Shown piece after piece: positions 3,866-46,608 of a stretch of 64,000 nucleotides of DNA. Numbering within the stretch: the first letter of the stretch is position 1; every line of letters begins with the position of its first letter. The notes under the pieces were generated by a model. The model had not been told where the DNA came from. It ran no database searches and saw only the letters and a program-made list of their open reading frames with translations. The stretch is from Lentimonas sp. (GTDB taxonomy: Bacteria; Verrucomicrobiota; Verrucomicrobiia; Opitutales; Coraliomargaritaceae). The position numbers were made by a program, and so were the translations under genes. The DNA lies in the NCBI GenBank assembly GCA_047627755.1, contig JBLHTV010000001.1, positions 241 to 64,240 of the forward strand. The letters are read 5' to 3'.

Positions 3866-5035
3866 TTATTTTTTGATATAGGTTTTTCCAGTCTCCCATT
3901 CCTCTGAGACTTCCATGAGTATTGCAGTAACGAGCCTGAGAATCGAGTCTGTATTTGGAAAAAGTCCAGCAACCTTTGTTCGGCGTTTGATCTGAGTGTT
4001 GAGAGTCTCACATGCATTTGAGGTGCGCAGCCGTTTCCTCTTATGCTCCGGTAGATTGAAGATTTCAAGTCCCTCTGGAATAGCACTTTGCATCCAAGCA
4101 CTTAGCTCAGGTGCGCTCTTACTGTATTTTTCAACAATAGAATCAAGTTGCTCTTCTGCATGCGCGAGATCGGGGGCATTGAAGACTGTGCGTATGTCGG
4201 CACCGACAGCTTCGCGCATGTCGACTTTTGGCACATAAGCCTGTGCATTTTGCTGAAGATGGAACTGACAGCGTTGCCATGGTGTGGCATTGAAAACCGC
4301 TCTGAGAGCAGCTTTGATGCCTTCGTGTGCATCTGAGGTGATTGACTCGGGAATACCTATCCCTCGTTCTTTCAATGACACTAAAAAGGTGCGCCAATGC
4401 ACTTCGGCGTCAGAAAGTGCGGCAGATACGCCTAGGATCATACGCTTACCGTCGTCGCGTCGGACTCCGATTGCGGTGAAGACTGCGCAGTCTCGCACTG
4501 AACCTCCGATACGAACTTTAATGTAGGTCGCATCTATGATCATGTGAGCAATGGGCGGCAAGGGACGTTTGCGCCAGAGTTCAAAGGTTCCGTCGAGTTC
4601 AGCGGTCAATCTAGAGACTTGAGCGGAGCTCACTTCGAGTCCACATAGCTTCTCCATGACTTTGGTCACACGCCTGGTTGAGACGCCTTGCAAATACATC
4701 TCAGCGATGGCGACTTTGAGTGATCGATCCGAGCGCGAACCAGTCTCCAGCATGGACGGGCGATAGGGTTCGTCGGCGTCACGAGTTTGAGGAACGCGCA
4801 ATTTGAGCGGCCCCACGGCACTATGGAAGCTCCTGTTCTTGAATCCATTAGCATAGCCGTTGCGGCCTTCGCTACGTTCATATGGGTCAGTGCGAAGATG
4901 GCTGCTACGCTCAATGAGCATCGCTGCGTTCATTAGCATCTCAGCGATCTGAGGTAAGCCCTCGGAAAGGCCGTGTTCGAGAAGAAGATTGATTGGATCT
5001 TCTGTGTGAGTATCTTGTTTGTGGTGTCTGGTCAT
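3866..5035 (-). CDS. IS256 (Mutator) DDE transposase
   Basis: EMYLQGVSTRRV, DATYIKVR, SDAHEGI, WQRCQFH and RTSNACETLN motifs. Likely start MTRHH (5035). Confidence 0.95.
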   Translation of the reverse strand: MTRHHKQDTHTEDPINLLLEHGLSEGLPQIAEMLMNAAMLIERSSHLRTDPYERSEGRNGYANGFKNRSFHSAVGPLKLRVPQTRDADEPYRPSMLETGSRSDRSLKVAIAEMYLQGVSTRRVTKVMEKLCGLEVSSAQVSRLTAELDGTFELWRKRPLPPIAHMIIDATYIKVRIGGSVRDCAVFTAIGVRRDDGKRMILGVSAALSDAEVHWRTFLVSLKERGIGIPESITSDAHEGIKAALRAVFNATPWQRCQFHLQQNAQAYVPKVDMREAVGADIRTVFNAPDLAHAEEQLDSIVEKYSKSAPELSAWMQSAIPEGLEIFNLPEHKRKRLRTSNACETLNTQIKRRTKVAGLFPNTDSILRLVTAILMEVSEEWETGKTYIKK

Positions 5036-5117
5036 TGTTGGTGCTGTGTTTGGATTAAGCACCCTCAGCTTCCAGCTGTGGCCAGACGCCTTCAACCCCT
5101 GATATAGCATAACGGCC

Positions 5118-5397: not shown

Positions 5398-6779
5398 GGG
5401 AACTTCTGAAAACCTACCCCCGATCAGCTATCGCTGACTCAGGAGCAGGCTTTCAGTTTTTAGCTAAATTTCTTCAAAAAAACATCAGCACCAACAACTC
5501 AAATCTTTACTTCGTTAGTCAAAGTATTACTCTTTCATTATGAGATATCACGACCCCAAAAAAGAGAATGATTTGTTCAGCATGATCGAGCACCAGCAGT
5601 CAGTTCATGCTGAGGTAAAGGGAATCAACAAGCTCAATGAGGTGATCGACTGGGAGCTTTTTCGTGACGAATTGGAGTCGATACTGGGCTACGATAAACG
5701 CGACCCAAAGCGTGGCGGACGCCCTCCATTTGATGCCGTTCTAATGTTGCAGGTTCTGGTATTGCAGAAGTATTACGGTCTGAGCGATGAGGAGACAGTT
5801 CCGAGGAACGTAGTGACGACAACAGCGAAGCGTTCATTTCAGGTCATGGATCGCTTTAGCTTCCTGCAGTTCTTAGGTCTACAGGCAGGCGACAATGTGC
5901 CAGATGCGCGAACGATTTGGGACTTTAAGCAGCTACTAGAGAAGGATGATCGCGACGGGACGCGCCGTCTTTTTGAGCAATTTGGTAAGTTGCTTAGCTC
6001 CGAAGGATTATTGGCGAAAGAAGGCAGCATTGTGGACGCGAGCTTCGTAGCAGCCCCCCGTCAGCGTAACAGCCGCGAAGAGAATCAAGATATCAAAGAT
6101 GGTAAACGCCCTGCGGGCTTTGAATCAGATACGCCGAAAGGGCGTCAGAAAGATTGCGATGCACGTTGGACGAAGAAGAATAATGAGACGCACTACGGCT
6201 ATAAAAACCACGCCAAAGTGGATGCGAAAAGCAAGCTCGTGGATGGCTACACTACGACCGCTGCAAGTGTGCATGACAGTCAGGTTTTCAAGGACTTAAT
6301 TAACGATGAAGACGAAGCAGTCTTTGCTGATAGTCCTATGCTTCAGAGGATCATGACGATTTTCTGCTCTCGAAGGACTGCCAAAACTTTATCATGTTTA
6401 AGGGCAGTCGAGGGCATCCGCTCAGTGAAGAAGAGCAAGTAACCAACAAGCTCAGGAGTCGAATACGAGTGCGATGCGAACATGTCTTCGGTCGAATGAG
6501 CCAAATGGCTATGGACCGATTGCGAAGCATCGGTCTAAAGCGGGCTCATCAACACAACGGATTCTGTAACCTAGTTTACAATATGGATCGCTATGCCTTC
6601 TTATGTAGATGATAGGCGATCTGGGCCGCCAGAACGGCCAGATCTCGCCAATTAACCCCAAATTACGCCGAAAAAACCACTTCCCAGCAACCAACATCGC
6701 TCTCTCAAACCACCATTAAAACTGAAAAGCGGCTTTTGAGTCGCCTCCGGCGACCAAAAGGCGTTTTTCAGAAGTCCCC
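5398..6779 (+). mobile_element. IS5-family insertion sequence (defective)
   Basis: TIRs GGGAACTTCTGAAAA / TTTTCAGAAGTCCCC (14/15 match). 4-bp target duplication ATCA at 5394-5397 and 6780-6783. Confidence 0.92.
5540..6612 (+). pseudogene. IS5-family transposase, frameshifted
   Basis: GGRPPFD, LSDE, VPDARTIW, IVDASF, DARWTKK and YGYKNH motifs. One base is missing at ~6335 (GAT AGT -CC TAT GCT, expected DSAY). The C-terminus (RVRCEHVFG) is in another frame, ending at 6612. Confidence 0.9.
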
Positions 6780-6943: not shown

Positions 6944-8464
6944 TTAAAGTGCCTTCTCGATTTCACTCCAATAACGAGAGTCTTTCAGAAACTCGGACAT
7001 GCGGTCAAAGTCTTCGGATGTTTCGGCGTCGACTTTTAAGCGTTCTATGAGGCTGCTCAGTGTTTCCTCTGAATCCAGTGTTTGCATGCCCTCTTCCTCA
7101 TGGTCGACGATATTTGAATAGGCATTACCACTAAAGCGAACACGCTTATGATTGATTGGCTTCTGGTATTTCCAAAGCCCCATACCTGAGCCATCCCATG
7201 TGCCTTGGTAGATCTGTGCTTCACCTTTAGTGTAGAACAGGTTGTCACGCACTTCGACCGATTCTGCAAAGCGACCAGCTTCCCATGGTGTATCAACCAT
7301 TAGCTGATAGTGCTCTTCAATCGTGTTATAGACGATATTTTGGTAGATCTTTACGCCGCTGACAGGTCCATTTAGAACGAAACCACGCAGATGATCGTTC
7401 AAACTGATGTTGTGGCGAATTACGGTATTTTTGTTGCCGATGGACTGTCCCGAGTCTTGGTGTTTCGACCAATCACAGATAAGGAAAAAGCCACCGGCGT
7501 TGTCCGCACTCAAGTTGTATTCAAACACGGTGCCATCACAATTGAAGTCAGAGTCGAGTCCCTGCCCATCAAAGGTGCCGGCATAGCCCCAGACCTCATT
7601 GAAACGGATTTGCGTGTTGAGGCTGCTCCACGGCCAAATGCCGATACTGGGCCCTGCATGCTGCGTGACCTCTTTTGTGTCTAAATCGGCAATGCGCTGT
7701 CGGGCACCATAAAGACGATTGTATTCGACCACGGCGTGCTCTGTGCCAATGGGCACGATGCCATCCCCTCCGATATCTTCGAGTAAGTTGCCTCGTATTA
7801 CCACATTTGTGCTGAGGTGCGACAAATCATCCCATGGATCCATCCAACCTTTAATCGCATCGCGATCACAGCGAAGGATATGGCAGTCTTCAATCAATAA
7901 ACCATCAATCTTAGTTGGCACCTTTCGTGTATCGACCTCCCAGCGGATGCCTGTGCCGCCTCCTTTGTCCTTTGAAAACACACCGTTGACATCACGCACT
8001 AACGAATTTCGCAAAGTAATATCCTGAACCAAACCTGCATTTTTAGCGAACACCAGTAATCCGGCTCGCTTCGCTTCGCGCTGAGCCCCCGTGTTGGTGA
8101 TCTCAATCCCATCAATCACCCAGTGTGACAGATTCTCAAGAAAGACCGCCGAACGCGTCACTCCCCCACCTGCGATGACCGGCTTCGGGCCATCGAAATA
8201 GCTCGTCAGTGTAATCGGCAGCCCCTGCGCGCCTGATGTGCTCGGCTTAAACTGCCCCTGAAACACCTGCCCACTTCGCAGGTGAATGGTATCCCCAGGC
8301 TCGAATTGCTGCTGATTGGCAGCAGCAAGACTCGACCATGCTGTTTTAGGGCAGAGACCCACCAAAGCATCATCGCCATGCAGGGCATCAATATAATAGT
8401 CTGCCGCAGAAAGCACAGAACAAGACAGCCAACTTAGACCGAAAGCGAATGAGAGTAACTTCAT
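6944..8464 (-). CDS. Secreted right-handed parallel beta-helix protein, putative polysaccharide-active enzyme
   Basis: Signal peptide MKLLSFAFG...LSA; YYID..GDD....W..L.......PGDTI.L N-terminus; repeated V.I..N..... coils; acidic motifs DIGGDG and DGQGLDSD. Confidence 0.8.
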   Translation of the reverse strand: MKLLSFAFGLSWLSCSVLSAADYYIDALHGDDALVGLCPKTAWSSLAAANQQQFEPGDTIHLRSGQVFQGQFKPSTSGAQGLPITLTSYFDGPKPVIAGGGVTRSAVFLENLSHWVIDGIEITNTGAQREAKRAGLLVFAKNAGLVQDITLRNSLVRDVNGVFSKDKGGGTGIRWEVDTRKVPTKIDGLLIEDCHILRCDRDAIKGWMDPWDDLSHLSTNVVIRGNLLEDIGGDGIVPIGTEHAVVEYNRLYGARQRIADLDTKEVTQHAGPSIGIWPWSSLNTQIRFNEVWGYAGTFDGQGLDSDFNCDGTVFEYNLSADNAGGFFLICDWSKHQDSGQSIGNKNTVIRHNISLNDHLRGFVLNGPVSGVKIYQNIVYNTIEEHYQLMVDTPWEAGRFAESVEVRDNLFYTKGEAQIYQGTWDGSGMGLWKYQKPINHKRVRFSGNAYSNIVDHEEEGMQTLDSEETLSSLIERLKVDAETSEDFDRMSEFLKDSRYWSEIEKAL

Positions 8465-8480
8465 ATTAGTTATGTAAATG

Positions 8481-9572
8481 CTAGCGTTGCACACGACCAG
8501 AGGCATTGCCTCGCATCAAGGTTTCCACTTCTTCACGTGAATTATAATTAAAATCTCCTTTGATCGAATGCGCGAGACAAGATGCTGCCACGGCGAAATC
8601 AACCTGCTCTTGAGGCGTCGCAAAGTCAGCCGTCGTCATGGCATAGATCAACCCCGCAGCAAAGGAATCGCCCCCACCGACACGATCAACGATGTTACGC
8701 ATCTTGTAGGATTGATACGTGGCACCGTTCATCGGCGCAAACGCGGCTACATCGCTGGCAACATCGAAGAGCATCGCACCCCAATTGTTATGCGTCGCAG
8801 AAATACTCTCGCGCAAGGTGATCGCCACCTTTTCCACCTTATCGAAGCGTTGCGCGATTTGACGCGCCACGTCGGGATACTGCGCGATTTCCAAGCTGCC
8901 GGCATGCACATCGGTATCGCCCGCATGAATGTCGAGCACATCCGCAGCATCTTCTTCATTGCCAATGATGACGTTCACATTCTCCAGAAACTCCGGCATG
9001 ATGCCGCGGGCTAAGCTGCGCGCATCGGTGCCCGGGCGCCAACGCCATAAGTTCTTACGGAAATTCAAATCACAGGACACCTTCACGCCCGCAGCCTGTG
9101 CCTTATCGGCAGCGAGCACCGCCGCACGTGCAGCAGTTTCTGAAATCGCGAGTGTAATGCCCGAAATATGCAGCCACTGTGCATCGGCAAAGATTGCATC
9201 CCAATCATACTCCTCACCGGGGCACAGTGAAACCGCACTGTAGTCGCGGTCATAGATCACGCGACTCGGGCGCTGATTGGCCCCCGTCTCTACGTAATAA
9301 ACCCCGAAACGACCTTCTTCGCGCCGCAACACATGATCGACATCGACATTGAAGCCGCGCATTTGACGCACAAACGCATCCGCGACCGCATGCTCGGGCA
9401 ACGCGCTGACAAAGCGCGAACTGCCACCGAGCATCGAAACCGATGCGGCCACACTACTCTCAGCGCCACCGAAGGTTAGATCCATCGATCCGGGACAGAC
9501 TTGTGCAAAACGATAATTCTCACTGGGCGCGAGGCGCACCATAACTTCTCCAAACGTAACTACTTTTTTCAT
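8481..9572 (-). CDS. kdgK: 2-keto-3-deoxy-sugar-acid kinase (PfkB family, KdgK/DauC-like)
   Basis: VVTFGEVMVRL, DLNFRKNLW and DRVGGGDSFAAG motifs. AGGAG RBS precedes ATG 9572. Confidence 0.9.
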   Translation of the reverse strand: MKKVVTFGEVMVRLAPSENYRFAQVCPGSMDLTFGGAESSVAASVSMLGGSSRFVSALPEHAVADAFVRQMRGFNVDVDHVLRREEGRFGVYYVETGANQRPSRVIYDRDYSAVSLCPGEEYDWDAIFADAQWLHISGITLAISETAARAAVLAADKAQAAGVKVSCDLNFRKNLWRWRPGTDARSLARGIMPEFLENVNVIIGNEEDAADVLDIHAGDTDVHAGSLEIAQYPDVARQIAQRFDKVEKVAITLRESISATHNNWGAMLFDVASDVAAFAPMNGATYQSYKMRNIVDRVGGGDSFAAGLIYAMTTADFATPQEQVDFAVAASCLAHSIKGDFNYNSREEVETLMRGNASGRVQR

Positions 9573-9591
9573 ATAAATCTCCTGTATCAAA

Positions 9592-10236
9592 TTATGAACG
9601 ACTCATGACGGCGGTCGCACGCTGGGTAATGCCTGCCCAATCGCCTTCTCTGATCGCACTAGCGCTCGCGATCCACGAACCACCGACGGCGAGAATTATA
9701 TCTTCCTTTAAATAATCTTCTGCATTGTCAGCAGTGAGCCCACCCAGCGGGATGAACTGCAAGCCCAGATGCGCATACGGAGCCTGCATATTTTTGAGAT
9801 ACGCGAGTCCTCCCATCGGTTCCGCAGGGAATAGCTTCAATATATCGCAACCAAACTCCAGCGCATGTTCAATCTCACTGGGAGTCGCAATGCCAGGAGC
9901 AAACGGTAGCTGAGCATCCAGAGCCGCCTGCACAACGCGTGCGTTCATCCCCGGCGCAACTGCACAACTCGCACCAGCGTCTTGCACCTGTCGCACTTGA
10001 GTTGGTGTAATCACAGTGCCAGCCATCACTAGCATCTCGCTATAGTTCTCGGCGATAACCTGCATCACCTGCAGCGCAGCCGGAGTGCGCATGGTGATTT
10101 CAACCGCTTTAATACTACCGGCAAGAAGCGCTTCAGCCAGAGGCTTGGCATCGTCAACATTTTCCACGGTCACCGTGGCAATCGCGCGTGACGCAGCAAG
10201 TTGCGCACGCATTCGTGGTGTAAATAAAGTCTTCAT
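9592..10236 (-). CDS. eda: KDPG/KDPGal/KHG aldolase (Eda/DauD-like)
   Basis: EITMRT, PGIATPSE, KLFPA, IPLGG and VGGSW motifs. Confidence 0.92.
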   Translation of the reverse strand: MKTLFTPRMRAQLAASRAIATVTVENVDDAKPLAEALLAGSIKAVEITMRTPAALQVMQVIAENYSEMLVMAGTVITPTQVRQVQDAGASCAVAPGMNARVVQAALDAQLPFAPGIATPSEIEHALEFGCDILKLFPAEPMGGLAYLKNMQAPYAHLGLQFIPLGGLTADNAEDYLKEDIILAVGGSWIASASAIREGDWAGITQRATAVMSRS

Positions 10237-10248
10237 TTTATTGTTCTA

Positions 10249-11424
10249 TTATTCGACCACCGCAAAGCTGGACTCGTCTTTAGCATTAGGATCGATGACA
10301 AACGGCTGCATCGCCACTTCATTCACTTCGACGCCAAGGCCCGGTAGTTCATTAAAATGTAGCTTTCCATCAATCACTTCATGGGCCGCCGAAAAGATCG
10401 AATCACGCACCGAATGCTCGGTTTGGTCCATCTCCAGCATGACTAGACGACGCTCAAAGCGACCGGGATTCTCCGGCACCATACTGATCGCGGATGCGGC
10501 CACTGCTTGATTGATTTTTAACCCCCAGCAATGCGGCACCATGTCCGTATGCGATGCACTCGCGATTGCATTGATTTTCACAAACTCCGTAATACCACCA
10601 CAGTAAGCGATATCGGGCTGCATAATATCTAAACAAGCGCCGCTTGATAAGCGCTCAAACCCATAGCGAGTCTGCTCACATTCCCCCGCCGCAATTGGCA
10701 CACTCAGTTGTTCACGCAGCCGAGCCATATCACGGTAGTTCTCCGGAGAGAGTGGTTCTTCAAACCAGCAATAGTCATTCGCCTCTAACACACGACCTAT
10801 GCGAATCGCCTCTTTATAATTGTAGGCATGATTGGAGTCCGCTCCGATCTGTGTCGTTGGGAAACGACTACGAAAGGCTTCGATCAGCTTGGTATCGAAC
10901 TCTATGTTTTTACCGATCTTGACCTTCAGCATCGTGTAGCCTTGCGCAACATAACCAGCAGCCTCTTCGAGCAACTCTTCGAGCATTTCGTCCTCTGGCT
11001 TGTCGTCGCGAAAATACATACCCGTCGCGTAACAAGGCACAGGCTCATCCGAACCACCTAACAAGGTGCGGACAGGTGTATTCAAGGCTTTGCCCTTGAG
11101 ATCCCAGAATGCTATATCCAGACCTGAAATGGCAGCCATGAAGATACCATGACGATTAAAGTCGCAAAACGCCTTCCACATCAGGTTCCACAGCACTTCG
11201 TTTTGCAGCGGATTCTTACCCAATAGTAATGGCTTAAAGTGGTGCTCTACAGCCGCAGCAATTGCTAGGTTCGGCCCATAGCATTCGCCCCATCCTACAG
11301 TTCCATCACTGCAGGTCACTTTGAGGACGAAGTTGCTCTTCACCGGATAATACCACTGCGAAAAGCCGATGGATCGGCTCAACTTAGTGCGCAATGGAAA
11401 ACATTGAATATCGACGATTTTCAT
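10249..11424 (-). CDS. Mandelate racemase/enolase-superfamily enzyme, probable 3,6-anhydrogalactonate cycloisomerase (DauB-like)
   Basis: GWGECYG, KVKIG, DSNHAY, WFEEP, AAGE, QPD and PHCWG motifs. The specific function is inferred from context and from recalled similarity (FSQWxY N-terminus). Confidence 0.8.
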   Translation of the reverse strand: MKIVDIQCFPLRTKLSRSIGFSQWYYPVKSNFVLKVTCSDGTVGWGECYGPNLAIAAAVEHHFKPLLLGKNPLQNEVLWNLMWKAFCDFNRHGIFMAAISGLDIAFWDLKGKALNTPVRTLLGGSDEPVPCYATGMYFRDDKPEDEMLEELLEEAAGYVAQGYTMLKVKIGKNIEFDTKLIEAFRSRFPTTQIGADSNHAYNYKEAIRIGRVLEANDYCWFEEPLSPENYRDMARLREQLSVPIAAGECEQTRYGFERLSSGACLDIMQPDIAYCGGITEFVKINAIASASHTDMVPHCWGLKINQAVAASAISMVPENPGRFERRLVMLEMDQTEHSVRDSIFSAAHEVIDGKLHFNELPGLGVEVNEVAMQPFVIDPNAKDESSFAVVE

Positions 11425-11443
11425 AATTATGGAGACTTAAAAA

Positions 11444-12856
11444 TTAACGCTTAATCGAGATGCGTTTGATATCGTAGTAATCCTCGAGTGCGAGACGGCT
11501 CACGTCCTTACCGTAGCCGCTTTGCTTGAGCCCACCATGCGGCAATTGCAGCGAATAGTAGGCTTCGTTAATGAGGATATTGCCGAAGATCAGACGCTTC
11601 TCGGCCTCGAGTGCACGAGAGAGGTTTTGGGTATAGACGTAGGCGGACAATCCATACTCGGTATCATTCGCCAAGGCGAAGGCATCGTCGCTGTCATCAA
11701 ACGGCATGACAGGCATGATCGGCCCGAAAATTTCTTCACAGGTCAAAGCACTGTCGCGTGCGACGTCTTTAATCAAAGTCGGCTGCATGAAATACCCGGG
11801 GCGACTCGCGCGTTTGCCACCAGTAACCACTGTGCCCTTATGCGTCTCTGGTTGGCAGAACTTGACCATCTGCTCCACGCTCGCCTCTGACACGACCGGA
11901 CTCAGCTCAGGCCCGGCGCCCGAGTCGCCGACATAACGATACGACTCCATCAGCGCCTTCGCCTTCTCGATGAAAGCCGCATAAATGCTGCGGTGCACAA
12001 AGACACGATTCGGTGCGACACAGATCTGTCCGGCATTGGCCAACTTCAGGCCAACAATGTCAGCCACTGCGGCATCCAGATCCGCATCTTCAAAGACCAG
12101 CACGGGTGCATCGCCACCGAGCTCCAGAGACAGTCGCTTCACTGTCGTCGGTGATTGCTCTATCAGTTTCTTGCCGGCAAAAGTCGATCCTATCATGGTC
12201 AGTAGACGTGGGATTGGGCTTTGCGCCAAGGCATCGCTGACGAGCTTACCACGACCACAGAGTAAATTCACGGTGCCCTTTGGAAATGCGACTTCATTGA
12301 TTAATTCAGCCACTCGCATCGAAGCCATCGGTGTCTTATCGGATATTTTAAACACCGAGGCACAGCCACTCGCCAATGCAGGGCCTAGCTTATAGCCCAG
12401 ATTTAGCAGAGGGAAGTTCCATGTCAGTAAGCCAGCGACGACACCAATGGGTTGATACGAAAGAAAGTTCAGATGCCCGCCGTCATAGTCCGGAATGGTT
12501 TCTCCGTAGTGGCGCTTCACTTCCTCGATGTAGTAGCCGAGGCAGTCAACCAGCATATTAAAATCGTAGCTTGCGACATCCTGTGTTTTGCCAGTCTCTT
12601 GAATCAGTAGATCAACGATATTCGCCTCGTCCGCCTTCAGATTGACAATCAGCTCATCGACCAATGCTTTACGCTCATTGATCGAGAGTTGACCATATGC
12701 TTCCGAGGCGATCTTCGCCACATCAAGTGCACGATTCACATCTTCAGTCGTCGCGCTCGCAACTTGTCCAATTTTTGCCGCAGTCGCAGGATTATACACA
12801 TCCAGATGTGCGTCACTATCGACGAATTCGTTTCCTATGTAATTCTTTATATTCAT
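11444..12856 (-). CDS. NAD(P)-dependent aldehyde dehydrogenase, probable 3,6-anhydro-D-galactose dehydrogenase (DauA-like)
   Basis: WNFPLLNL, TMIGST, LELGG, AGQICVAPNR and EEIFGP motifs. First gene of the four-gene cluster. Confidence 0.8.
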   Translation of the reverse strand: MNIKNYIGNEFVDSDAHLDVYNPATAAKIGQVASATTEDVNRALDVAKIASEAYGQLSINERKALVDELIVNLKADEANIVDLLIQETGKTQDVASYDFNMLVDCLGYYIEEVKRHYGETIPDYDGGHLNFLSYQPIGVVAGLLTWNFPLLNLGYKLGPALASGCASVFKISDKTPMASMRVAELINEVAFPKGTVNLLCGRGKLVSDALAQSPIPRLLTMIGSTFAGKKLIEQSPTTVKRLSLELGGDAPVLVFEDADLDAAVADIVGLKLANAGQICVAPNRVFVHRSIYAAFIEKAKALMESYRYVGDSGAGPELSPVVSEASVEQMVKFCQPETHKGTVVTGGKRASRPGYFMQPTLIKDVARDSALTCEEIFGPIMPVMPFDDSDDAFALANDTEYGLSAYVYTQNLSRALEAEKRLIFGNILINEAYYSLQLPHGGLKQSGYGKDVSRLALEDYYDIKRISIKR

Positions 12857-12976: not shown

Positions 12977-14704
12977 CTATTTATTGTTCTTATGCTTGTG
13001 ATACTCTTGCCATGTGAGCATGCCGTCTTTGTTAACGTCGGCCTCAGGGTTTTTCTTGAAATATTGGTTCTTCCATTTTTCGTCATTACTAGAGGAATCC
13101 TTCTTCACGGGCTTAGCGGTTGCTGGTTTTGCTGTGTTTTCCAAACGCGCATCGAGATGCTTACGAAATGATGCGAGCTTCACTGCATACTCGGGGTTGC
13201 TTGCCAGATTCTCCCATTCGTTCTTGTCGATTCGATGATCGTAAAGTTCTTCGTCGCCAGTGTGATACCGAATATAGCGCCAGTCCTGCGTGCGTAGCGA
13301 ATAGTTCTGCATCATGGGGTCCGGAGCTTTCCACTTGTGAACCGCAGTGAGTGCTGCCTCAGGCCCACCCCAATCGTTCAACTTTGGATTTTCAAGAAAC
13401 GATACCAGGCTCGTGCCATCCAGTGGAGCGCCTTTCTCATTACGACGTGTATCACCGCTCAGACCGCAGAGCTCGATCAATGTCGGATACAGGTCTACCA
13501 ACGAAGCTGGATGCATTACGTTTGCACCAGCTTGTGCCACGCCTGGAGCGCGAATAATAAACGGCACGCGTGTGCTCTCTTCCCAAAGTGAATTCTTATA
13601 GACGTAATCCTTCGGACCGGTGCCCCAACCATGGTCACTGGTAAGCACGATGATCGTGTTATCTTTTAGCGATGAATTATCGACGACATCCAAAATCATA
13701 CCGAGCAACTCATCCACAGATGCGACACAGGCCAAATACGCTTGTGTAAAATGCTTCAGCGCCAACTCTTGGTCACCGCCGTAGGAAGCGACCAGACTTT
13801 CAAAGATCTTCACACCGCGATCATTGCCACCACGCGATTTAGTCAAATACGTGTCATCGGCATCTCCGTTAAGAATCGGAGGCAGCTCCAAAGTATCCAC
13901 AGGAAACTGATCGAAGAAGCGCTGCGGAACAATCAAAGGTGTGTGCGGGCGCATGAAGCCCACTCCCATGAAAAAAGGTTTCTTCTCATCACCGGCAGAA
14001 TAAGCCTGCAATGTCTCAGCAGCCCATTGCGCATTAGCCTCATCTGCGGTCAAGTCACGCTCTCCGGATTTGGGGAATGCCAAGTCAAAGCTATTTCTCC
14101 AATTACCGCGCTGCCATGTATAGGACTTCCCGTCCCCAAAGTCTTTGCCTTCCAAAGAGACGAATGGGCCGAACGAACCGTCAATTTTACCGAAGTCATC
14201 ACGCAGCGGCACAGGTGTCATCGGGTGCGGCACTTGCTTATTGCCATCAAAAGCATAGGGTCCGTAGTCCGCTTCTTCACGAAATTCGTCCCAATCCTGA
14301 TGCGCATGATGATGCATCAATTTACCTGTTCCAATGGTGCGATACCCATTGGCTTGGAAGTGCGCGAACATTGTCTTTGAATTCGCCAATACCTCATTTT
14401 GATTCCAGTTATCCATACCAAAATTATTTGAAGTATGTGGATAGATTCCGGTGAAGAAGCTAGATCGTGACGGTGCACAGATCGGGATCGTGCAATGCAT
14501 TTGCTGGAAAGTCACACCACTATCCATGAGCCGCGTCATGTTGGGCGTCTGAGTTTGTGGATGGCCTCCAAAGCCTTCGATGTCGGTATTCAGATCATCA
14601 CAGACGATCAAAATTACATTCGGTTTGGTAGCCTGTAGACACACTGCCGCACAGAGTGCGACCAGTCCCAAGCAGAGAGAACGGAGTATTGATGACATAT
14701 TCAT
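12977..14704 (-). CDS. S1 sulfatase (iduronate-2-sulfatase-like, probably S1_7) with EF-hand-like tail
   Basis: Signal peptide; DDLN, CAPSR, GKLMH, RPHTP and SDHG motifs; tail DVNKDGMLTWQE. Confidence 0.92.
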   Translation of the reverse strand: MNMSSILRSLCLGLVALCAAVCLQATKPNVILIVCDDLNTDIEGFGGHPQTQTPNMTRLMDSGVTFQQMHCTIPICAPSRSSFFTGIYPHTSNNFGMDNWNQNEVLANSKTMFAHFQANGYRTIGTGKLMHHHAHQDWDEFREEADYGPYAFDGNKQVPHPMTPVPLRDDFGKIDGSFGPFVSLEGKDFGDGKSYTWQRGNWRNSFDLAFPKSGERDLTADEANAQWAAETLQAYSAGDEKKPFFMGVGFMRPHTPLIVPQRFFDQFPVDTLELPPILNGDADDTYLTKSRGGNDRGVKIFESLVASYGGDQELALKHFTQAYLACVASVDELLGMILDVVDNSSLKDNTIIVLTSDHGWGTGPKDYVYKNSLWEESTRVPFIIRAPGVAQAGANVMHPASLVDLYPTLIELCGLSGDTRRNEKGAPLDGTSLVSFLENPKLNDWGGPEAALTAVHKWKAPDPMMQNYSLRTQDWRYIRYHTGDEELYDHRIDKNEWENLASNPEYAVKLASFRKHLDARLENTAKPATAKPVKKDSSSNDEKWKNQYFKKNPEADVNKDGMLTWQEYHKHKNNK

Positions 14705-14712: not shown

Positions 14713-17571
14713 TTATCGCATGTCTTTCACGATCAAATAGATTGGGGTTTCAGTAAATGGGATCCGAACAACGCCATTTTCAGGAGTTAATTCGAAAGGA
14801 TTTCCGTAAAGGTCGCGGCCAGCCACGATTGAGTCGGTCTGTAGCTCACGCGCCTGCTCTGCGCCTTCACTCCACAAGACGACAAAGTCAAACTCTGGAC
14901 CGCTAAAGCGTGTCTGCCAGCATCCATCGCCAAGGTCATCCTGACCGTCACACTCGACATCATACATGATATCACAAGCCGCAGCAGCTGCGATGAATCC
15001 AGATTCGACGGTGCGCCCCCCTGGGCCGACCCAGCCCTGTAGCCAACGATCCAGCAGGTCGCCCTCTAGCAGGATAAAGTAGAAGGACTTTTCGACTCCG
15101 TTAGCAAATGCCGTAGAGACCGCTTGTATATACGCCGATGCACACTCCTCCTCGTTAAGTATCTCGCGAGCAACAAATGGATTTTTATAAGGCACAAAAG
15201 GCTTCGCATCCTCTGCCAAACTGAAGTAGCCAAACTCGGTTGCCCAAAATGACGGGGCTTCGCCAAATTCAGACACCGCCTCGTCAAACCCCTGCACCAC
15301 TTCACGGAAATCTCCACGTGCTGGATGGCGACGCCCTTCGGTGTAAGGGTGGTATGAAATCGCATCGAACGGTTCCAAGCCGGTGTGTCCGAGTAACTCC
15401 TTCAGGAAATGATTATGAGTCTCAGCTGGCGTGGCTAGTCCCAGACCCACGACTTCGATATTGGGGTCTTTCGCCTTAATGAGCTCATAGGCATGCGTCG
15501 TAAAGTCGGCCATTTCTTTAACCGTGCCACGATAGAACAGTGGGATGTCCGGCTCATTCCATGTTTCAATGGCATGCAAGCGGCCATCCGCTAAGTCAAT
15601 CAAACGGTTCAAATAGTCATCAAACTCAGCTTGCACATCATCACGATGCGTGTAGGCACGCGAGGCAGACGAACCGACTGGCGCACGCGAAGCCCATTTC
15701 GGCATGCCGGGCCCGATGACCGCCAGCGGCGTCACTCCAAAAGATGCTTGATAATCGAGCACGGCATCCAGCTTTGCGGCCTGTCTTTCATTCCAGACGC
15801 CTTTCTTAGTCATCAAACTCCCAAGCCCACAATCAAAGGCAAAACGCGACCACCCAAGGCCAATGCGCTCCATCGCCCAAAACTCGCGTAGGTCGCTGAT
15901 ATTTGTTCCAAAGCGAATGGAAGGATCAACTTGCTTACTTGTGCGAGCACGCACCACAGCGAGCGAGATGCGATGTAAGTCTTCGCCAACTGAGACTACA
16001 ACACGATACATTCCCTGAAGCACAAAGCCTGGCGTCTCCCAAGCAATTATTGCATTCGACTGTGCGGCGATCTCACCAACACCCCGCTCACTCTCAAATA
16101 CCACATTACCATGCGTATCAAGGATACTAATACGTGCAGGGGGCGAGATTGTGACATCCGAGTTATTACGAATCACTGTGACTACATCAAAGGCTTCGTT
16201 TGGTTCATAGACGCGATGATAACGCACCGTATCGGAATTAGACTCAATCACTCGCTGCGGCTTGTAATCGGCATTACCTTTGGGTGTCACGGCCACGGCA
16301 TCCAAATAGACTTCCACTGCATCCGGTGTGGGTGGAATGGCAACTGCGATGGCATAGGCGTTTTTCGCAGCTAAAGGCAGACGCACATCGAAGGAATAGC
16401 GGGCCCAATCTTGAGTAAGTGTCACAGTCTTTTCAATCAAGTTGCTACCACGGTTTGGCACCAAGGCCGTCGGCACGTAGCGCACCTGTAGCTTCACTTT
16501 CTGCCCTGGCGCACTTGCCTTCATGTCCGCCGAAACGGTCAATCGATCCAAGGCATGAGCCTCAAAATAGTCCGAAGCAATCGTAGCGTGCTTTGCCACT
16601 GGTTCAAACGCCGTGTTTTGAGGCACCAACGACACTCTCAAACTCTGTTGCCCATGCGAGGCGGCATCCTCAGTAAGATCCCATCCGGAACTGACGTCAG
16701 TTTTATTAAAAATCACACCCCACTCTTCACGGCCCAACTCAAAGCTACTGTTATTTAGAATGTTCTGTGTCACAGGGTCCGAGTCCAGAGAGGAGCCATC
16801 TGTGTCGGATACGGGTAAGAGTAAATCGTAAACGATATGTTGCCCATCAACAGCATAGAGATTCACCCAAATCGAGCGATGCCCTTTCCAGTCGACAGCA
16901 TTAAGCACTTCAATCTCCAACTCCCTCTGCGGCAACAGCACGAAACCATCATCAGAATCACTCAGTGAACTAAATGACTGAAACGGCTGACGCTTGAGTA
17001 GCACCGACCGATGCTTTTGTGATGTCGAATAATTAAAGCGCTCTCCATCCACCTCGAAGGCCTGTTCGTCATAGAAACCAATCGGCAGGTTAAGCGTCTC
17101 ACGCTCGGCACTGTAGCCTGTTGCCGAAAAATCCAAATCAAAGCGTAAGGCGCGCTCATCAGTGATCGTGGTTGCCACTTTCAAGTGGCCCGCCGCGCCC
17201 TTGATTTTGATCGGTTCATTGAAAACCAATGCGTCCGCATGCACTTGATATCGAACCTCCCATGGAAGTAGATTTGAATGTTGAGAACCGTTCGGAGCTT
17301 TAATGGTAAAACTGCTGCCTTCAATGAGCACACCACTGGTCGATACCAGATACATCGTATTACCGTCTGGTTTCGCCTGATAGTGTAGATCGTCCCACTG
17401 AATCGACGCATCTTCGTGAACTATCGGTGTAGTCGAAGGTCTGCAGTCTGTAGCGCCTTCGTTCTGCCCAGGGGCAATTGTCGGGGCCGATGGCACGCAA
17501 GCGACACTGAAAGCAGACAGCACGAGCGCACAAGACAAGCGACATTGTAAGGATTTGGATATAGAAGACAT
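14713..17571 (-). CDS. Multidomain clan GH-A-like glycoside hydrolase lipoprotein (GH39/GH5-like) with CBM-like domain
   Basis: Lipobox-like FSVAC; NILNNSSFE...LTQDWARY...YLDAV beta-sandwich; TIM-barrel motifs ETWNEPD, ISYHPY and WATEFG. Confidence 0.7.
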   Translation of the reverse strand: MSSISKSLQCRLSCALVLSAFSVACVPSAPTIAPGQNEGATDCRPSTTPIVHEDASIQWDDLHYQAKPDGNTMYLVSTSGVLIEGSSFTIKAPNGSQHSNLLPWEVRYQVHADALVFNEPIKIKGAAGHLKVATTITDERALRFDLDFSATGYSAERETLNLPIGFYDEQAFEVDGERFNYSTSQKHRSVLLKRQPFQSFSSLSDSDDGFVLLPQRELEIEVLNAVDWKGHRSIWVNLYAVDGQHIVYDLLLPVSDTDGSSLDSDPVTQNILNNSSFELGREEWGVIFNKTDVSSGWDLTEDAASHGQQSLRVSLVPQNTAFEPVAKHATIASDYFEAHALDRLTVSADMKASAPGQKVKLQVRYVPTALVPNRGSNLIEKTVTLTQDWARYSFDVRLPLAAKNAYAIAVAIPPTPDAVEVYLDAVAVTPKGNADYKPQRVIESNSDTVRYHRVYEPNEAFDVVTVIRNNSDVTISPPARISILDTHGNVVFESERGVGEIAAQSNAIIAWETPGFVLQGMYRVVVSVGEDLHRISLAVVRARTSKQVDPSIRFGTNISDLREFWAMERIGLGWSRFAFDCGLGSLMTKKGVWNERQAAKLDAVLDYQASFGVTPLAVIGPGMPKWASRAPVGSSASRAYTHRDDVQAEFDDYLNRLIDLADGRLHAIETWNEPDIPLFYRGTVKEMADFTTHAYELIKAKDPNIEVVGLGLATPAETHNHFLKELLGHTGLEPFDAISYHPYTEGRRHPARGDFREVVQGFDEAVSEFGEAPSFWATEFGYFSLAEDAKPFVPYKNPFVAREILNEEECASAYIQAVSTAFANGVEKSFYFILLEGDLLDRWLQGWVGPGGRTVESGFIAAAAACDIMYDVECDGQDDLGDGCWQTRFSGPEFDFVVLWSEGAEQARELQTDSIVAGRDLYGNPFELTPENGVVRIPFTETPIYLIVKDMR

Positions 17572-17805
17572 GAATGCAGCAATCAACAGGGGTCGAGAGA
17601 TAACGATGTGGTTATTTAAACAGTATCCTCACCTTTCCGCGTTCGCGAAATGGTAATATACATTCGCAGCACGCCAATCTACCCAATAAAACAAAATAAT
17701 GTGAATTTTATATATCGGCTGCCTGAATGAGATCGAGACCGCCAGCCGGACAAGTACATGCTCAACAAAACTTAAGCCCTACAATTCCTACCACAGTTCG
17801 CCTCC

Positions 17806-20991: not shown

Positions 20992-21894
20992 ATGCCCATT
21001 GATCTACCAGAAGGTATTTACTCCGGCTTCAGTATGTATGGAGACGAAGTCATGGTCCCCGGAGTCAATTCCCTCGGCGAGCACTGGTCGTCACCACGCC
21101 TAAAGCCTGTTTCCAAAAAACTCACAAACTGGACCTGCCTCCTTCAACTCGAAGGCGAATGCTACTTCCACATCAACGGTAAGGACGAACGACTCACCAA
21201 CGGCAATCTACTCTTGCTCTCCAACGGCACAACCATGGAGCGCCTTGATCAGAAATTTTCCTACAACCATACACTCTGGATCGGTTTTTCAATGCGCCGT
21301 GCGCTACAAGATGCCCCTGATCTACTTGAAGCGTGGAAGAGCTTCAGTTACGTTAATAAGCGTTTCCTCCCAAAGCATAAATCACTACTCAAAACGATCG
21401 TCAACGAGCACGCACCCCCGGGGCAATTCAGTGAGCAAATTTCCCGCATGACCTTTCAGGCGTTTGTCTATTCACTGCAGGAATTCGTCAATGATGAGGA
21501 CGTCGAATCCATCATCCCCGCAGGTTTGGCGCAAAATCCGACTGTGCTTCTTGCCACAGATCTCTTCGAGCGTGAATACAGCGAGCACTGGGACCTTAAA
21601 AAACTGTCCGACCGCCTCGCTGTGTCCGAAAGTAAATTAGCCAAGGCATTTCGCGTCGCCACCGGCGAGAGCCCGATGGCTAGCCTATGGAAGATCCGTC
21701 TAATTAAAGGCTATGAGCTGCTCGTGGGCTCATCTATGAATGTCACAGAAATAGCCATGATGGTCGGCTTCCAAAGTAGCCAGAGCTTCGCAACTGCTTT
21801 TAAGCGCTCATTCAAATGCACCCCTCGCGATGTCAAAAACGGAAACGTCGAACAAATAGAACCGCGCGAATTTCTACACCAAAAAGAAGACTAA
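20992..21894 (+). CDS. AraC-family transcriptional regulator
   Basis: Cupin-like N-terminus; C-terminal double HTH (VTEIAMMVGFQSSQSFATAFKR...TP). Confidence 0.93.
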   Translation: MPIDLPEGIYSGFSMYGDEVMVPGVNSLGEHWSSPRLKPVSKKLTNWTCLLQLEGECYFHINGKDERLTNGNLLLLSNGTTMERLDQKFSYNHTLWIGFSMRRALQDAPDLLEAWKSFSYVNKRFLPKHKSLLKTIVNEHAPPGQFSEQISRMTFQAFVYSLQEFVNDEDVESIIPAGLAQNPTVLLATDLFEREYSEHWDLKKLSDRLAVSESKLAKAFRVATGESPMASLWKIRLIKGYELLVGSSMNVTEIAMMVGFQSSQSFATAFKRSFKCTPRDVKNGNVEQIEPREFLHQKED

Positions 21895-30701: not shown

Positions 30702-31583
30702 ATGACACGACTCCTCTGCTCTCTACTCATCCTCTCAGCGTCACTTTGCCATGCACAGCAACCAGTAGGTCGTGCGTCTGCAAACGCCCCCAAAGTGCCG
30801 GATGGCATTTCGTATTCAGTGCACCAATACAGGGAGTCCGACCCGCTACGCGCGGGTCAACTGGGCATTGCAATGCCCAATGATACCAAAGGATCATTGC
30901 CCGTGGTCGTTTGTATTCATGGCGGTGGTTGGGCGAAGGGCGACAAAGACCAGATGGCTTGGATGGCCATCCGCTATGCCCAGCGCGGCTATATCGGCGT
31001 GACAATCAGTTATCGACTCAATCACGAAGCTCCGCTGCCAGCCTGCATCCTCGATGTCAAAGAAACCATTCGCTACGTGAAAAGCATCAGCGATGATCTC
31101 CACGCAGATCCGGAACGCATCGCAGTGCTCGGTTACAGCGCTGGTGCGCACTTGGCGTTAATGATCGGCCTCAGCCCCGAAGCCGCAGAATTCAACAGCG
31201 CCGCTTATCCCGAACAAGACTCGTCAGTCGATTGTGTCGTCGCCATCTCCGCCCCCGCAGATCTCAGCGAACGACTCAAACGTCGTGGCAAACTCGGCTT
31301 CATCGCTGAGGGCCAAGCAACGGATGCCAACTTCATTCGCTCCATCTCACCACTGACTTGGATGAATCGACAACAAGTCCCAGTGCTCATGCTCCACGGC
31401 GACCAGGATCCCATTGTCCCCTCTTACAACTATGAGAACTTCGCAGACAAGTGTGATGACCTAGCCATTGACAATTTCGAACTCTACGTGAACGAAGGCG
31501 GGAAGCACATGTTCTTCTTCAAAGAGCAAGCGACCACACACCCCATCGTTGATCGCTTTCTGGCAAAGCACCTTAAACCTTAG
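30702..31583 (+). CDS. Alpha/beta hydrolase (HSL/BD-FAE-like esterase)
   Basis: HGGGW, GYSAG nucleophile elbow, HGDQDPIVP and GGKH motifs; signal peptide. Confidence 0.9.
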   Translation: MTRLLCSLLILSASLCHAQQPVGRASANAPKVPDGISYSVHQYRESDPLRAGQLGIAMPNDTKGSLPVVVCIHGGGWAKGDKDQMAWMAIRYAQRGYIGVTISYRLNHEAPLPACILDVKETIRYVKSISDDLHADPERIAVLGYSAGAHLALMIGLSPEAAEFNSAAYPEQDSSVDCVVAISAPADLSERLKRRGKLGFIAEGQATDANFIRSISPLTWMNRQQVPVLMLHGDQDPIVPSYNYENFADKCDDLAIDNFELYVNEGGKHMFFFKEQATTHPIVDRFLAKHLKP

Positions 31584-44550: not shown

Positions 44551-46608
44551 TCAAACCGCGTCGACACATACATAACTCGCATACGGCTCTAGTTCCATAC
44601 AGCCTTCGAGCACCTCTCCACTTGCCCATTCACGCAAGCGGAGTTGTTTCAAATCAAAAGTTTGTGACGTGCGTGTATAATTAAATAAAAAGGTCAGTGT
44701 GCCCTGACTTGATTGACGCTGACGTAGCACAACACCTTCCGGCAATCCTACCTGCGTAGACAATGCATGCGACTCTAACAAGGATGCGTAAAATTCACTT
44801 AAACTAGCATCGGCCAATTTCGCACCCAAATAATATGCGCTGCCTTCACCGCTGCGATTCGATGTAATGACAGGTGATCCTTTATAAAACTCAGACCCCG
44901 TCCGTGCAAGCACATCAGCCGACTCCACATGTAAGACTTCTATCACATCTGATGCCACGCCTGGATACGGTTTGCCCGAATTATGCACGAGCAGAACCTC
45001 AGTCTCGTCGTGTAAATAGTCCACTTCCTCGTTCCAGATGCCAAAGGTCTCCCGCAAGCCCGCGCCGGGGAAGCCGCCAAGGTGGCAGCGATTCATCTCG
45101 TCCACATAGCCGGTCAAATAACTACCAACCAGGATTCCACCCTGATCAACAAAAGCCTGCAGGCGCGCACCGAGTGCATCGGACACCAGATACAGCGCGG
45201 GTATCACAAGCACCTTATAGTCGGCAAACTCAGACTGAGCCGATAGCACATCCACCGATTGCCCAGCCACCGTCAACGCACGGTAATGCGCTTGGCAGGC
45301 TTCGGTATAAATATCTGACGGATACGGATGCACCTCTTTTGCTTTCTTCGGCCCACAGGATGCATTGAGCGCCCAACGACTCTCCCAATCATACACGATT
45401 GCAATGCATGCTTGTGGTATATCCTGCTGACACAGTGATTCGAGCGACGATAGCTCATAACCGACCGCAGCGCACTCTTGATACACGCGCCCCTGATCAC
45501 TACCTTCATGGTCGACCACTGCACCATGATATTTTTCAAAACCACCGCGCCCCTTGCGCCACTGGAAATAATGAATGGTATCGGCACCATTGGCGACCGC
45601 CTGTAGCACCTCTTGCCGATGCACGCCCGGACGCTTCAATTTATTGATCTGCCCCCAGTTCACCGAACTCGGCGAGCACTCCAATAACATCCACGGCTTA
45701 CCACCGCTCATGCCGCGCATCATACTATGAATGAAATCAGAAGCAATAGATTGCTTCCACGTGTGCTCCCGATCATCTGGCATCGGATATAAATCATTCG
45801 AGATCACATCCAGATGCTCCGACCATTGCCAATAATTCGTGCCCTCGTGCGTGCCCATATAGTTAGTGGTGCATGGCACATTCGGCGTTAACTCACGCAG
45901 CGGCTTCATCTCGTTTAGAATGAAAGAGACATGCTGGTCATTGGTAAATCGCAACCAGTCCAACCCCAGTCCATCGATACTCTCATCAAAAGTCGGCACT
46001 TGGCTCCAGTCTGTAAAGGTATGATTCCAGAAGCTCGCCCACCAAGCCTCGTTCAGTGCTGTAAGTGTTTGGTATTTTTCTTTCAACCACGCCTGAAAGC
46101 CCGCTCGGCAAGTAGCACAATGACACTCGCCACTAAATTCGTTCCCCACATGCCACAGCGCCAGTGCAGGATGATCTTTATAGCGCTCAGCCAAGGCTCG
46201 GTTCATTTGCGCGGCCTTCGCACGATACACCGGCGAACTCATGCAGTGATTATGGCGGCCACCGGATCGATCACGCATGCCATCCTGATTCACACGACGC
46301 ACCTCCGGATATTTCTCCGACAGCCACATCGGCTTACTACCACTCGGCGTGGCCAAGAACACGAACATACCTTCCTCGGCAAACCGATCCATCACCCGAT
46401 CTAACCATTCAAAAGTATAGCGCCCCTCTTCCGGTTCCAGTGCTGTCCATCCAAAGATACCCACAGAGGCAGAGGTCACGCCCGCCTGTTTCATCAGCTC
46501 GATATCACGCTCTAGGACCTCCGGTGAATGCTGCCATTGGTCCGGATTATAATCTGCCCCATAAAAGAGTTTCGTTTGCTTGGGAATGCCTACCTTGGGT
46601 GTGATCAT
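44551..46608 (-). CDS. GH42 beta-galactosidase, cytoplasmic
   Basis: YGADYNPDQW, WHVGNE, Cys cluster CHCATC, MLLECSP, YFQWR and EKYHG motifs. No signal peptide. Confidence 0.95.
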   Translation of the reverse strand: MITPKVGIPKQTKLFYGADYNPDQWQHSPEVLERDIELMKQAGVTSASVGIFGWTALEPEEGRYTFEWLDRVMDRFAEEGMFVFLATPSGSKPMWLSEKYPEVRRVNQDGMRDRSGGRHNHCMSSPVYRAKAAQMNRALAERYKDHPALALWHVGNEFSGECHCATCRAGFQAWLKEKYQTLTALNEAWWASFWNHTFTDWSQVPTFDESIDGLGLDWLRFTNDQHVSFILNEMKPLRELTPNVPCTTNYMGTHEGTNYWQWSEHLDVISNDLYPMPDDREHTWKQSIASDFIHSMMRGMSGGKPWMLLECSPSSVNWGQINKLKRPGVHRQEVLQAVANGADTIHYFQWRKGRGGFEKYHGAVVDHEGSDQGRVYQECAAVGYELSSLESLCQQDIPQACIAIVYDWESRWALNASCGPKKAKEVHPYPSDIYTEACQAHYRALTVAGQSVDVLSAQSEFADYKVLVIPALYLVSDALGARLQAFVDQGGILVGSYLTGYVDEMNRCHLGGFPGAGLRETFGIWNEEVDYLHDETEVLLVHNSGKPYPGVASDVIEVLHVESADVLARTGSEFYKGSPVITSNRSGEGSAYYLGAKLADASLSEFYASLLESHALSTQVGLPEGVVLRQRQSSQGTLTFLFNYTRTSQTFDLKQLRLREWASGEVLEGCMELEPYASYVCVDAV

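Follow-up and report, generated by a model that had tools for sequence, protein, structure and literature searches.

Biochemical demonstration of 3,6-anhydrogalactose catabolism is confined to red-macroalgae degraders among the Bacteroidota and Gammaproteobacteria, and 3,6-anhydro-D-galactose is an unusual sugar of red-algal carrageenan. Here we describe a cluster of four genes, two of them related to dauA and dauB of this pathway, in a 64,000-nucleotide stretch of contig JBLHTV010000001.1 (positions 241 to 64,240; hereafter the window) from the metagenome-assembled genome (MAG) of the verrucomicrobium Lentimonas sp. (GCA_047627755.1). In Zobellia galactanivorans the genes dauA-dauB-dauC-dauD are ZGAL_3155, 3156, 3154 and 3153; DauC was at first annotated as a 2-dehydro-3-deoxygalactonokinase (DgoK type), and DauD as a 2-keto-3-deoxy-6-phosphogalactonate (KDPGal) aldolase; and the core of the carrageenan locus, which is under an AraC-family regulator, CgrA, consists of dagA (GH127), dauA, dauB and dauD (Ficko-Blean et al. 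2017, PMC5698469). The structure 5OLC is that of Zobellia DauB (ZgDauB; PMC5698469), and 6PNU is the aldehyde dehydrogenase (ALDH) entry among the structures deposited with a study that solved DauA of Pseudoalteromonas fuliginea PS47 (Hettle et al. 2019, PMC6923384).

The four genes of the window all lie on the minus strand and are predicted to encode an ALDH that is DauA-like and a candidate 3,6-anhydro-D-galactose dehydrogenase (11444..12856; 470 aa; PF00171, E 3.6e-132), an enolase-superfamily cycloisomerase that is DauB-like and a candidate 3,6-anhydro-D-galactonate cycloisomerase (10249..11424; 391 aa; MR_MLE_N and MR_MLE_C, E 3e-52), an Eda-like class I aldolase of the 2-keto-3-deoxy-6-phosphogluconate (KDPG) type and a candidate KDPGal aldolase (9592..10236; 214 aa; PF01081, E 1.4e-60), and a PfkB-family 2-keto-3-deoxy-sugar-acid kinase (8481..9572; 363 aa; PF00294, E 1.2e-24). 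The Pfam matches and the gaps of 19, 12 and 1 nt between successive genes, with the kinase open reading frame taken as 8481-9590, confirm the tight packing noted in the original prediction. The kinase start is, however, more likely the ATG at 9572 than position 9590, as it reads MKKVVTFGEV, is preceded by AGGAG 7 nt upstream and agrees with the N-termini of 12 orthologs; the kinase then has 363 residues and lies 19 nt from the aldolase gene. The verrucomicrobial origin is likewise borne out, the proteins nearest to those of the window being from Opitutae/Coraliomargaritaceae MAGs, and the composition of the contig is typical of the source MAG, which is 1.47 Mb in size and 55% complete. Promoter and terminator scans returned sites no more numerous than in shuffled sequence.

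We put at about 65% the probability that the cluster encodes a D-anhydrogalactose-type catabolic route. Directly observed are the protein families, the intact state of the catalytic residues, the nearest relatives that have been characterised, the position in the trees and a synteny kept in about 15 species; the substrates and the stereochemistry are inferred. The pathway would be cytoplasmic and convert a free 3,6-anhydro-D-galactose-type sugar into pyruvate plus glyceraldehyde-3-phosphate: the ALDH would oxidise the open-chain aldehyde to 3,6-anhydro-D-galactonate, the enolase-superfamily enzyme would open the anhydro ring to give 2-keto-3-deoxy-D-galactonate, the PfkB kinase would phosphorylate C6, and the Eda-derived aldolase would cleave the KDPGal. 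Judged by its proteins and their neighbours, the locus is best described as a known pathway in altered form: its DauA and DauB are divergent, its kinase is not an ortholog of Zobellia DauC, its aldolase derives from Eda, and its conserved neighbourhood is a new one that has no GH127 gene.

Placement of the DauA-like and DauB-like proteins

The ALDH domain (PF00171) spans residues 12-465, and the catalytic motifs are kept, with ELGG at 245 (Glu) and GQIC near 277 (Cys). The top match in the Protein Data Bank (PDB) is 6PNU with 361 bits, and E. coli GabD gives 312 bits. In a carefully built ALDH tree the window clade (support 100/99) is nested within a 45-row DauA-type clade (100/100), which includes the ALDHs whose genes adjoin DauB genes; the GabD clade (100/99) and a clade of candidate AHGD enzymes, specific for 3,6-anhydro-L-galactose (100/99), both fall outside it. 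Five genomes of agarolytic Gammaproteobacteria provide a further comparison, as each has two pairs of such genes, an adjacent DauB/DauA-like pair and a second pair whose members are 2-3 kb apart. The second pair is L-type, since one member scores 483 bits to 5XD7, the structure of an L-specific ACI. Identity of the window ALDH is 43-46% with the canonical DauA of these genomes and 32-35% with their L-type ALDH. The Gammaproteobacterial DauA anchor is weak, being a partial Psychrosphaera ALDH that scores 320 bits to 6PNU. On these grounds the ALDH is a candidate 3,6-anhydro-D-galactose dehydrogenase that forms its own subclade among DauA-type proteins.

The enolase-type protein scores 327 bits to 5OLC, 235 to 4GGB (Gci) and 132 to 5XD7. 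Its catalytic residues were compared with the published list for ZgDauB and AtGci, namely the metal ligands Asp/Glu/Glu, the base Lys, the acid His, Asp87 and Trp298 (PMC5698469), and the corresponding set—K167/K169, D196, E222, E248, H298, W300 and D88—is invariant in the family alignment. In the tree the window clade (100/100) sits on a stem of about 1.0 substitution per site and, together with an Armatimonadota and a Desulfarculaceae sequence (94/93), is the sister of the canonical clade (99/98), which holds sequences from the Planctomycetota–Verrucomicrobiota–Chlamydiota (PVC) superphylum, Planctomycetota among them, and from Gammaproteobacteria. The union of the window lineage with this canonical clade has a support of 91/86, and the L-ACI group is on a very long separate branch. 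The Bacteroidota anchors are Maribacter P0309 and a Flammeovirga plasmid locus with GH127, dauB, dauA and DgoK genes; since Maribacter P0309 scores 709 bits to 5OLC, the Bacteroidota clade contains the family of ZgDauB.

Sequence identity is 44-47% with the canonical DauB of the five agarolytic genomes and 31-35% with the cycloisomerase of their second pair. Gammaproteobacterial and Bacteroidota DauB are 44-46% identical to one another, and the window protein reaches 47% with Gammaproteobacterial DauB. Identity alone cannot settle DauB membership, because Gci is 38-42% identical to either DauB group, which is about as close as the DauB groups are to each other. A better discriminator, derived in this analysis and without prior publication, is a flexible lid loop that is disordered in 5OLC (PMC5698469). 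At this loop the window and canonical clades have (F/I)GFSQW-xY and the Bacteroidota have FYFSQW-xY, whereas Gci-context proteins (those whose genes adjoin kdgD) have ESASM or SSQA and ACI has SDAKH. By this motif the window protein appears to be DauB-type.

The same comparisons bear on an oxidative uronate route, in which the enolase-type enzyme would be Gci and the ALDH a ketoglutarate-semialdehyde dehydrogenase. Gci of Agrobacterium tumefaciens (4GGB/4HPN) belongs to the same enolase subgroup, has the same catalytic machinery and is the second-best solved relative of the window protein; close homologs carry the annotation D-galactarolactone cycloisomerase from the Joint Genome Institute (JGI), and the Gci route likewise ends with an ALDH. 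We nevertheless find this route highly improbable. The lid loop of Gci is different, identity to a Gci-context protein is 34%, and the ALDH scores 287 bits against the ketoglutarate-semialdehyde dehydrogenase model, for which the cut-off is 770. True Gci loci have kdgD next door, and TRAP or ABC transporters in their context, whereas neither KdgD nor a uronate dehydrogenase is adjacent here, and the kinase and aldolase of the cluster would have no role.

An agar-type route, in which the pair would act on 3,6-anhydro-L-galactose like AHGD and ACI of Vibrio sp. EJY3, resembles the window cluster in that an ALDH and then an enolase-superfamily cycloisomerase process an anhydrogalactose. A GH50-like gene, of the agarase family, is present inside the window (31549-33252) and tells for this route and against the D route; in addition, enzymes of clan GH-A, to which a neighbour of the cluster is assigned below, can act on alpha-L sugars. 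The GH50-like gene is, however, outside the conserved block of genes, the verified L-type pairs of the five agarolytic genomes are only 31-35% identical and occupy separate, fully supported branches, and the two further oxidoreductases of the L route, a pair of short-chain dehydrogenases/reductases (SDRs) that convert L-2-keto-3-deoxygalactonate (L-KDGal) to 2-keto-3-deoxygluconate (KDG), are missing. The absence of such SDRs, as originally reported, is upheld by tblastn with KduD and by Pfam scans, which found no SDR homolog on the contig; the only KduD-like matches in the MAG are a FabG beside a FabF-type beta-ketoacyl synthase and an SDR beside the uronate isomerase gene uxaC. We regard the agar-type route as very unlikely.

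Phylogeny had been proposed as the check on D- versus L-specificity, and it places both the ALDH and the enolase-type protein with DauA and DauB, away from AHGD and ACI. A grouping of the ALDH with L-specific or succinate-semialdehyde enzymes, which the original prediction had named as a refutation, is not what is seen. The D-type affinity of the predicted 3,6-anhydro-D-galactose-type pathway is thus retained, but membership in the canonical Dau clade is not, as the DauA-like and DauB-like proteins of the window form, by these trees, a long-branched sister clade separate from it.

Aldolase and kinase of the lower pathway

The aldolase passes the NCBIfam eda model and scores 99.6 against the DgoA model, below its cut-off of 207. 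Equivalents of the catalytic residues E45, K133 (the Schiff-base Lys) and F135 are present. Selectivity between KDPG and KDPGal is set at two stereo sites, one in strand beta1 (Pro19 in Eda, Ala11 in DgoA) and one in beta7 (Thr161 in Eda, Val154 in DgoA) (PMC4915726). In the window aldolase the residues corresponding to P19, V20 and T161 of Eda are Ala, Thr and Leu. This Ala and this Leu recur in all 40 complete aldolases of PVC Dau clusters, and the V20 position is occupied by Thr in aldolases of the window clade and by Gly in most of those from canonical PVC clusters. A housekeeping paralog outside the cluster in one relative retains Pro-Val...Thr, exactly as in E. coli Eda. Because its stereo-site residues differ from those of Eda, the cluster aldolase would suit a galacto-configured substrate and hence the D route. 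These sites look galacto-type, and from the comparison of PVC cluster aldolases with housekeeping Eda it looks as though a galacto-type aldolase arose independently within the Eda branch. The assignment stays tentative because the DgoA cut-off is not reached and the rule is not universal: a DauD-like aldolase from Flammeovirga (Bacteroidota) has Thr at the T161 site, which speaks against the D-route reading.

In NCBIfam the kinase best matches the model for the kinase half of aldolase/kinase fusions, with 427 bits, and that for a haloarchaeal bifunctional KDG/KDGal kinase, with 181 bits. A protein of this kind can plausibly act like DauC, yet it is outside the DgoK-type family to which Zobellia DauC was assigned by annotation; tblastn with E. 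coli and Flammeovirga DgoK gave no match in the 55%-complete MAG. A Planctomycetes form of the pathway has been glimpsed before, in that species without dauC were noted and a 'sugar kinase' appears in a figure legend (Ficko-Blean 2017, PMC5698469).

The four reaction classes are those of the Zobellia pathway, the ALDH and cycloisomerase are homologous to DauA and DauB and have these as their best solved relatives, and the catalytic residues and DauB lid-loop motif are shared, as are an AraC-family regulator and sulfatases nearby. Identity to the Bacteroidota Dau proteins is only about 40-42%, however, the gene order in the window is A-B-aldolase-kinase, the kinase is PfkB rather than DgoK-type, and the aldolase represents another PF01081 subfamily with stereo-site residues of its own. 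The DauA-D composition given in the original prediction therefore holds for the reaction classes but not for the protein families, with a PfkB in place of a DgoK-type kinase and an Eda-like aldolase that falls below the DgoA cut-off.

The lower pathway is also where a chance association of neighbours has to be weighed, in which a semialdehyde dehydrogenase of generic type, a sugar-acid dehydratase with no connection to it and housekeeping copies of KDG kinase and Eda would simply lie side by side. In three of five relatives the genome has no Eda-like gene besides the cluster aldolase, and the source MAG encodes the uronate isomerase UxaC, which would need a KDG kinase and Eda; the cluster aldolase may for these two reasons also serve KDG metabolism, and both weigh against a dedicated D route. 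Adjacency of the four genes is nevertheless kept in about 15 species, the same functions adjoin one another, in another order, in more than 20 canonical PVC loci, and the aldolase is unlike housekeeping Eda at its stereo sites. A fortuitous grouping is accordingly most improbable. The UxaC gene is on another contig of the MAG (C40; L126:4347-8786), in a run with genes for an SDR, a 2-hydroxyacid dehydrogenase and an Ldh_2 protein that adjoins a sulfatase and an AraC regulator; this run would depend on a KDG kinase and on Eda, of which the 55%-complete MAG shows no copies other than the two in the cluster.

Distribution, conserved neighbourhood and possible substrate

Related loci were surveyed with one genome per species, and the best 80 loci, among which Zobellia did not appear, were sorted into two types. 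Window-type loci (L002-L016) are 63-87% identical to the window in the ALDH and 65-81% in the enolase-type protein, all come from Opitutae/Coraliomargaritaceae MAGs, and they keep the order ALDH, enolase-type enzyme, aldolase, kinase in about 15 Coraliomargaritaceae species with small genomes. Canonical-type loci are 41-49% identical to the window and have the cycloisomerase gene before the ALDH gene. In canonical PVC loci an Eda-like aldolase and a PfkB kinase follow this pair, and more than 20 such loci have all four functions adjacent; in Gammaproteobacteria there are instead DgoK-type and DgoA-type genes elsewhere in the locus. The canonical PVC clusters resemble the window in kinase family (53-60% identity), in aldolase family (43-58%, with the same Ala and Leu stereo residues), in host superphylum and in a marine, sulfatase-rich setting. 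They differ in the ALDH and cycloisomerase, which fall in a separate sister clade, in the inverted gene order, and in often having GH127 within 10 kb.

Canonical dauB-dauA clusters are present in many Verrucomicrobiota, and also in Planctomycetota and Kiritimatiellota, and some adjoin GH127. The statement that the pathway is less well described in Verrucomicrobia therefore fits the literature, in which we found, within the library searched, no paper linking Verrucomicrobia with dauA or dauB, but not the genomes. Within the window's own family in the Genome Taxonomy Database (GTDB), 21 of 101 genomes have a DauB-like gene (the window's own MAG counted). The window type, its own genome aside, is represented in five genera, by genomes that measure 1.2-2.2 Mb. 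Among 22 other genomes of the window's genus a single one has a DauB-like gene, of canonical type and 47% identical, and the nearest window-type DauB-like copies (80-81%) belong to another genus of the same family. Given one positive genome among 22 genus-mates and the presence of the window type in five other genera, the distribution is patchy, which may reflect transfer or repeated loss. Two window-type relatives (P0035 and P0154) are carried on a Spirochaetota contig.

In the relatives the four genes are part of a larger co-oriented block, with the order PslG/GH39-like hydrolase, sulfatase, the four genes, GH136-like beta-helix protein and GH42. In the window the S1 sulfatase gene (12977..14704, minus strand; PF00884) is the upstream neighbour of the ALDH gene, and orthologs with 62-79% identity have the same position in 11 related loci; the protein is not near any solved sulfatase, its best PDB match being 126 bits. 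The last gene of the block encodes a secreted right-handed beta-helix protein (6944..8464, minus strand; PF13229) with a visible signal peptide, whose PDB matches are the lacto-N-biosidases 6KQS (E 1.6e-28) and 5GQC (E 1e-25); orthologs (56-80% identity) directly follow the kinase gene in 14 related loci. In 10 related loci the beta-helix gene is in turn directly followed by a GH42 gene, the ortholog of which (57-69% identity) in the window is a beta-galactosidase gene 36 kb away from this usual place (44551..46608, minus strand; PF02449, E 7e-137). In the window two transposases occupy the place after the beta-helix gene, one of the IS256 family on the minus strand (3866-5110) and one of the IS5 family on the plus strand (5540-6442). 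The conserved block looks to have been split here by an IS-associated rearrangement.

The first gene of the block (14713..17586, minus strand) encodes a secreted protein of 957 residues, with orthologs of 52-60% identity at the same position. This protein had no match in Pfam or PDB sequence searches. Its family, of 146 representatives at E below 1e-10, has weak Pfam matches to GH39, GH10 and GH42, all of clan GH-A, and its alignment shows NEP-Glu, HxY and TE-Glu (TExG) to be invariant. A full-length AF2 model was discarded, as the catalytic part had a pLDDT of 30-50, and a domain model was built on a deeper alignment; for residues 540-957 this has a pLDDT of 93 and its best fold match is PslG (5BX9; TM 0.76, E 3e-24). 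PslG itself is an endo-acting hydrolase of exopolysaccharide that belongs to GH39. The 957-residue protein additionally carries beta domains at its N-terminus and a CBM4_9-like region. From the model and the alignment, we place it in a clan GH-A family that is unclassified, its catalytic domain being PslG/GH39-like.

A gene for an AraC-family protein (20992..21894, plus strand; HTH_18/HTH_AraC) has orthologs of 75-78% identity just upstream of the block in four related loci (L005, L007, L011 and L016), and the protein is a candidate regulator of the block. Elsewhere the window has about 13 sulfatases, two GH2 genes, the GH50-like gene, two esterases, an MFS_2 transporter and a sulfate permease. 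The GH50-like protein (31549-33252, 567 aa) matches the GH50 beta-agarases 6XJ9 and 4BQ2 in three stretches only (E 2e-40), and their length exceeds its own by about 200 aa. A protein of 1207 aa gave no match in a PDB sequence search.

Presumably the block supplies its sugar from a sulfated galactan. That this is a carrageenan-type galactan, as the original prediction held, is not sustained: the window showed no recognisable GH82, GH150, GH167 or GH127, and the genes conserved beside the cluster encode instead the PslG/GH39-like hydrolase, the GH136-like beta-helix protein and GH42. With no recognised carrageenase or GH127 and with other genes as conserved neighbours, carrageenan targeting is not established. 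By tblastn GH127, the family of alpha-1,3-(3,6-anhydro)-D-galactosidases, is absent from the window and from the 55%-complete MAG, and among five window-type genomes that are 91-100% complete it (PF07944) occurs in only one and is absent from four. GH129 was not recognised in the window, although no search aimed at GH129-like enzymes was made, and Pfam identified no GH16 there; GH16 is present in four of the five relatives, away from the block, but the family is too broad to interpret. The window differs from the Zobellia carrageenan locus in having neither GH127 nor a recognised GH129-like gene nor a known carrageenase nearby. Among the canonical loci, by contrast, 12 have GH127 no further than 10 kb away, and these include the Verrucomicrobiota loci L037, L066 and L074.

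These absences weigh against the D-route reading, and several features of the upper enzymes do so as well. Bacteroidota DauB, Gci-context proteins and the PVC/Gammaproteobacteria clade form a trichotomy in the cycloisomerase tree, and a single clade of all DauB-like rows is merely not rejected in the approximately unbiased (AU) test (p-AU 0.37). The closeness of Gci to both DauB groups belongs here too. The window clade of the enolase-type protein has a long stem; only 5 of 10 DauB-specific columns are kept; and just after the catalytic His-x-Trp the window clade is unlike all DauB groups, with GT changed to GL and HF to SA.

Much of this would also be accommodated by the main rival to the D route, which is the same chemistry on a shifted substrate. 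The pair would then act on some other free-aldehyde sugar, such as a 3,6-anhydrogalactose with a substituent or a different aldose of anhydro or unsaturated type. The PslG-like or GH136-like enzymes would release this sugar from a sulfated glycan of planktonic origin, and the product of the pair would enter the same kinase and aldolase steps. The long stems (1.03 for the enolase-type protein, 0.46 for the ALDH), the changes beside His-x-Trp, the loss of half of the DauB-specific columns and the entirely different conserved neighbourhood without GH127 all point this way, as does the origin of the hosts, which are recorded from open-water metagenomes (ALOHA, North Sea and Tara runs), where carrageenan is not expected. 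On the other side, the FSQW-xY lid loop and 88 of the 101 columns conserved across DauB groups are kept, and the sister lineage is coupled to GH127: in an Armatimonadota MAG (L041, 481-3665) the DauB-like gene overlaps the start of GH127 by 4 nt. The missing GH127 is no argument for a new substrate, nor does it disqualify the Dau reading, because Pseudoalteromonas carrageenan loci show the same gap, having neither GH127 nor GH129 in strains that still grow on carrageenan with an anhydrogalactosidase that is still unknown (PMC6923384). We consider a shifted substrate unlikely, and prefer the D-anhydrogalactose-type route. The Armatimonadota locus also has a GH39-like gene downstream, and in it a cycloisomerase and a member of the anhydrogalactosidase family are compactly paired outside the usual phyla.

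Implications for planktonic Verrucomicrobiota

If the D-anhydrogalactose-type route is correct, planktonic Verrucomicrobiota with small genomes would join the organisms that catabolise 3,6-anhydrogalactose, by a form of the pathway in which the kinase is replaced and the aldolase, derived from Eda, has seemingly converged on galacto-type stereo-site residues. The neighbouring genes would then provide candidates for the still-missing anhydrogalactosidase, which is the gap also seen in the Pseudoalteromonas carrageenan loci (PMC6923384), and the question would be raised of which sulfated glycan bearing an anhydro-sugar open water has to offer. Should the favoured route be wrong, the divergent proteins would signal a substrate that is new to the pairing of an ALDH with a cycloisomerase.

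One answer, which we offer as speculation with a rather low chance of being right, is that the block in streamlined pelagic Coraliomargaritaceae represents a new kind of anhydro-sugar utilisation system, in which the GH136-like or PslG-like enzyme, neither of them a member of GH127 or GH129, frees a 3,6-anhydrogalactose-type sugar from a sulfated galactan that comes from plankton and not from macroalgae. Were this so, such glycans would exist in the organic matter of the open ocean.

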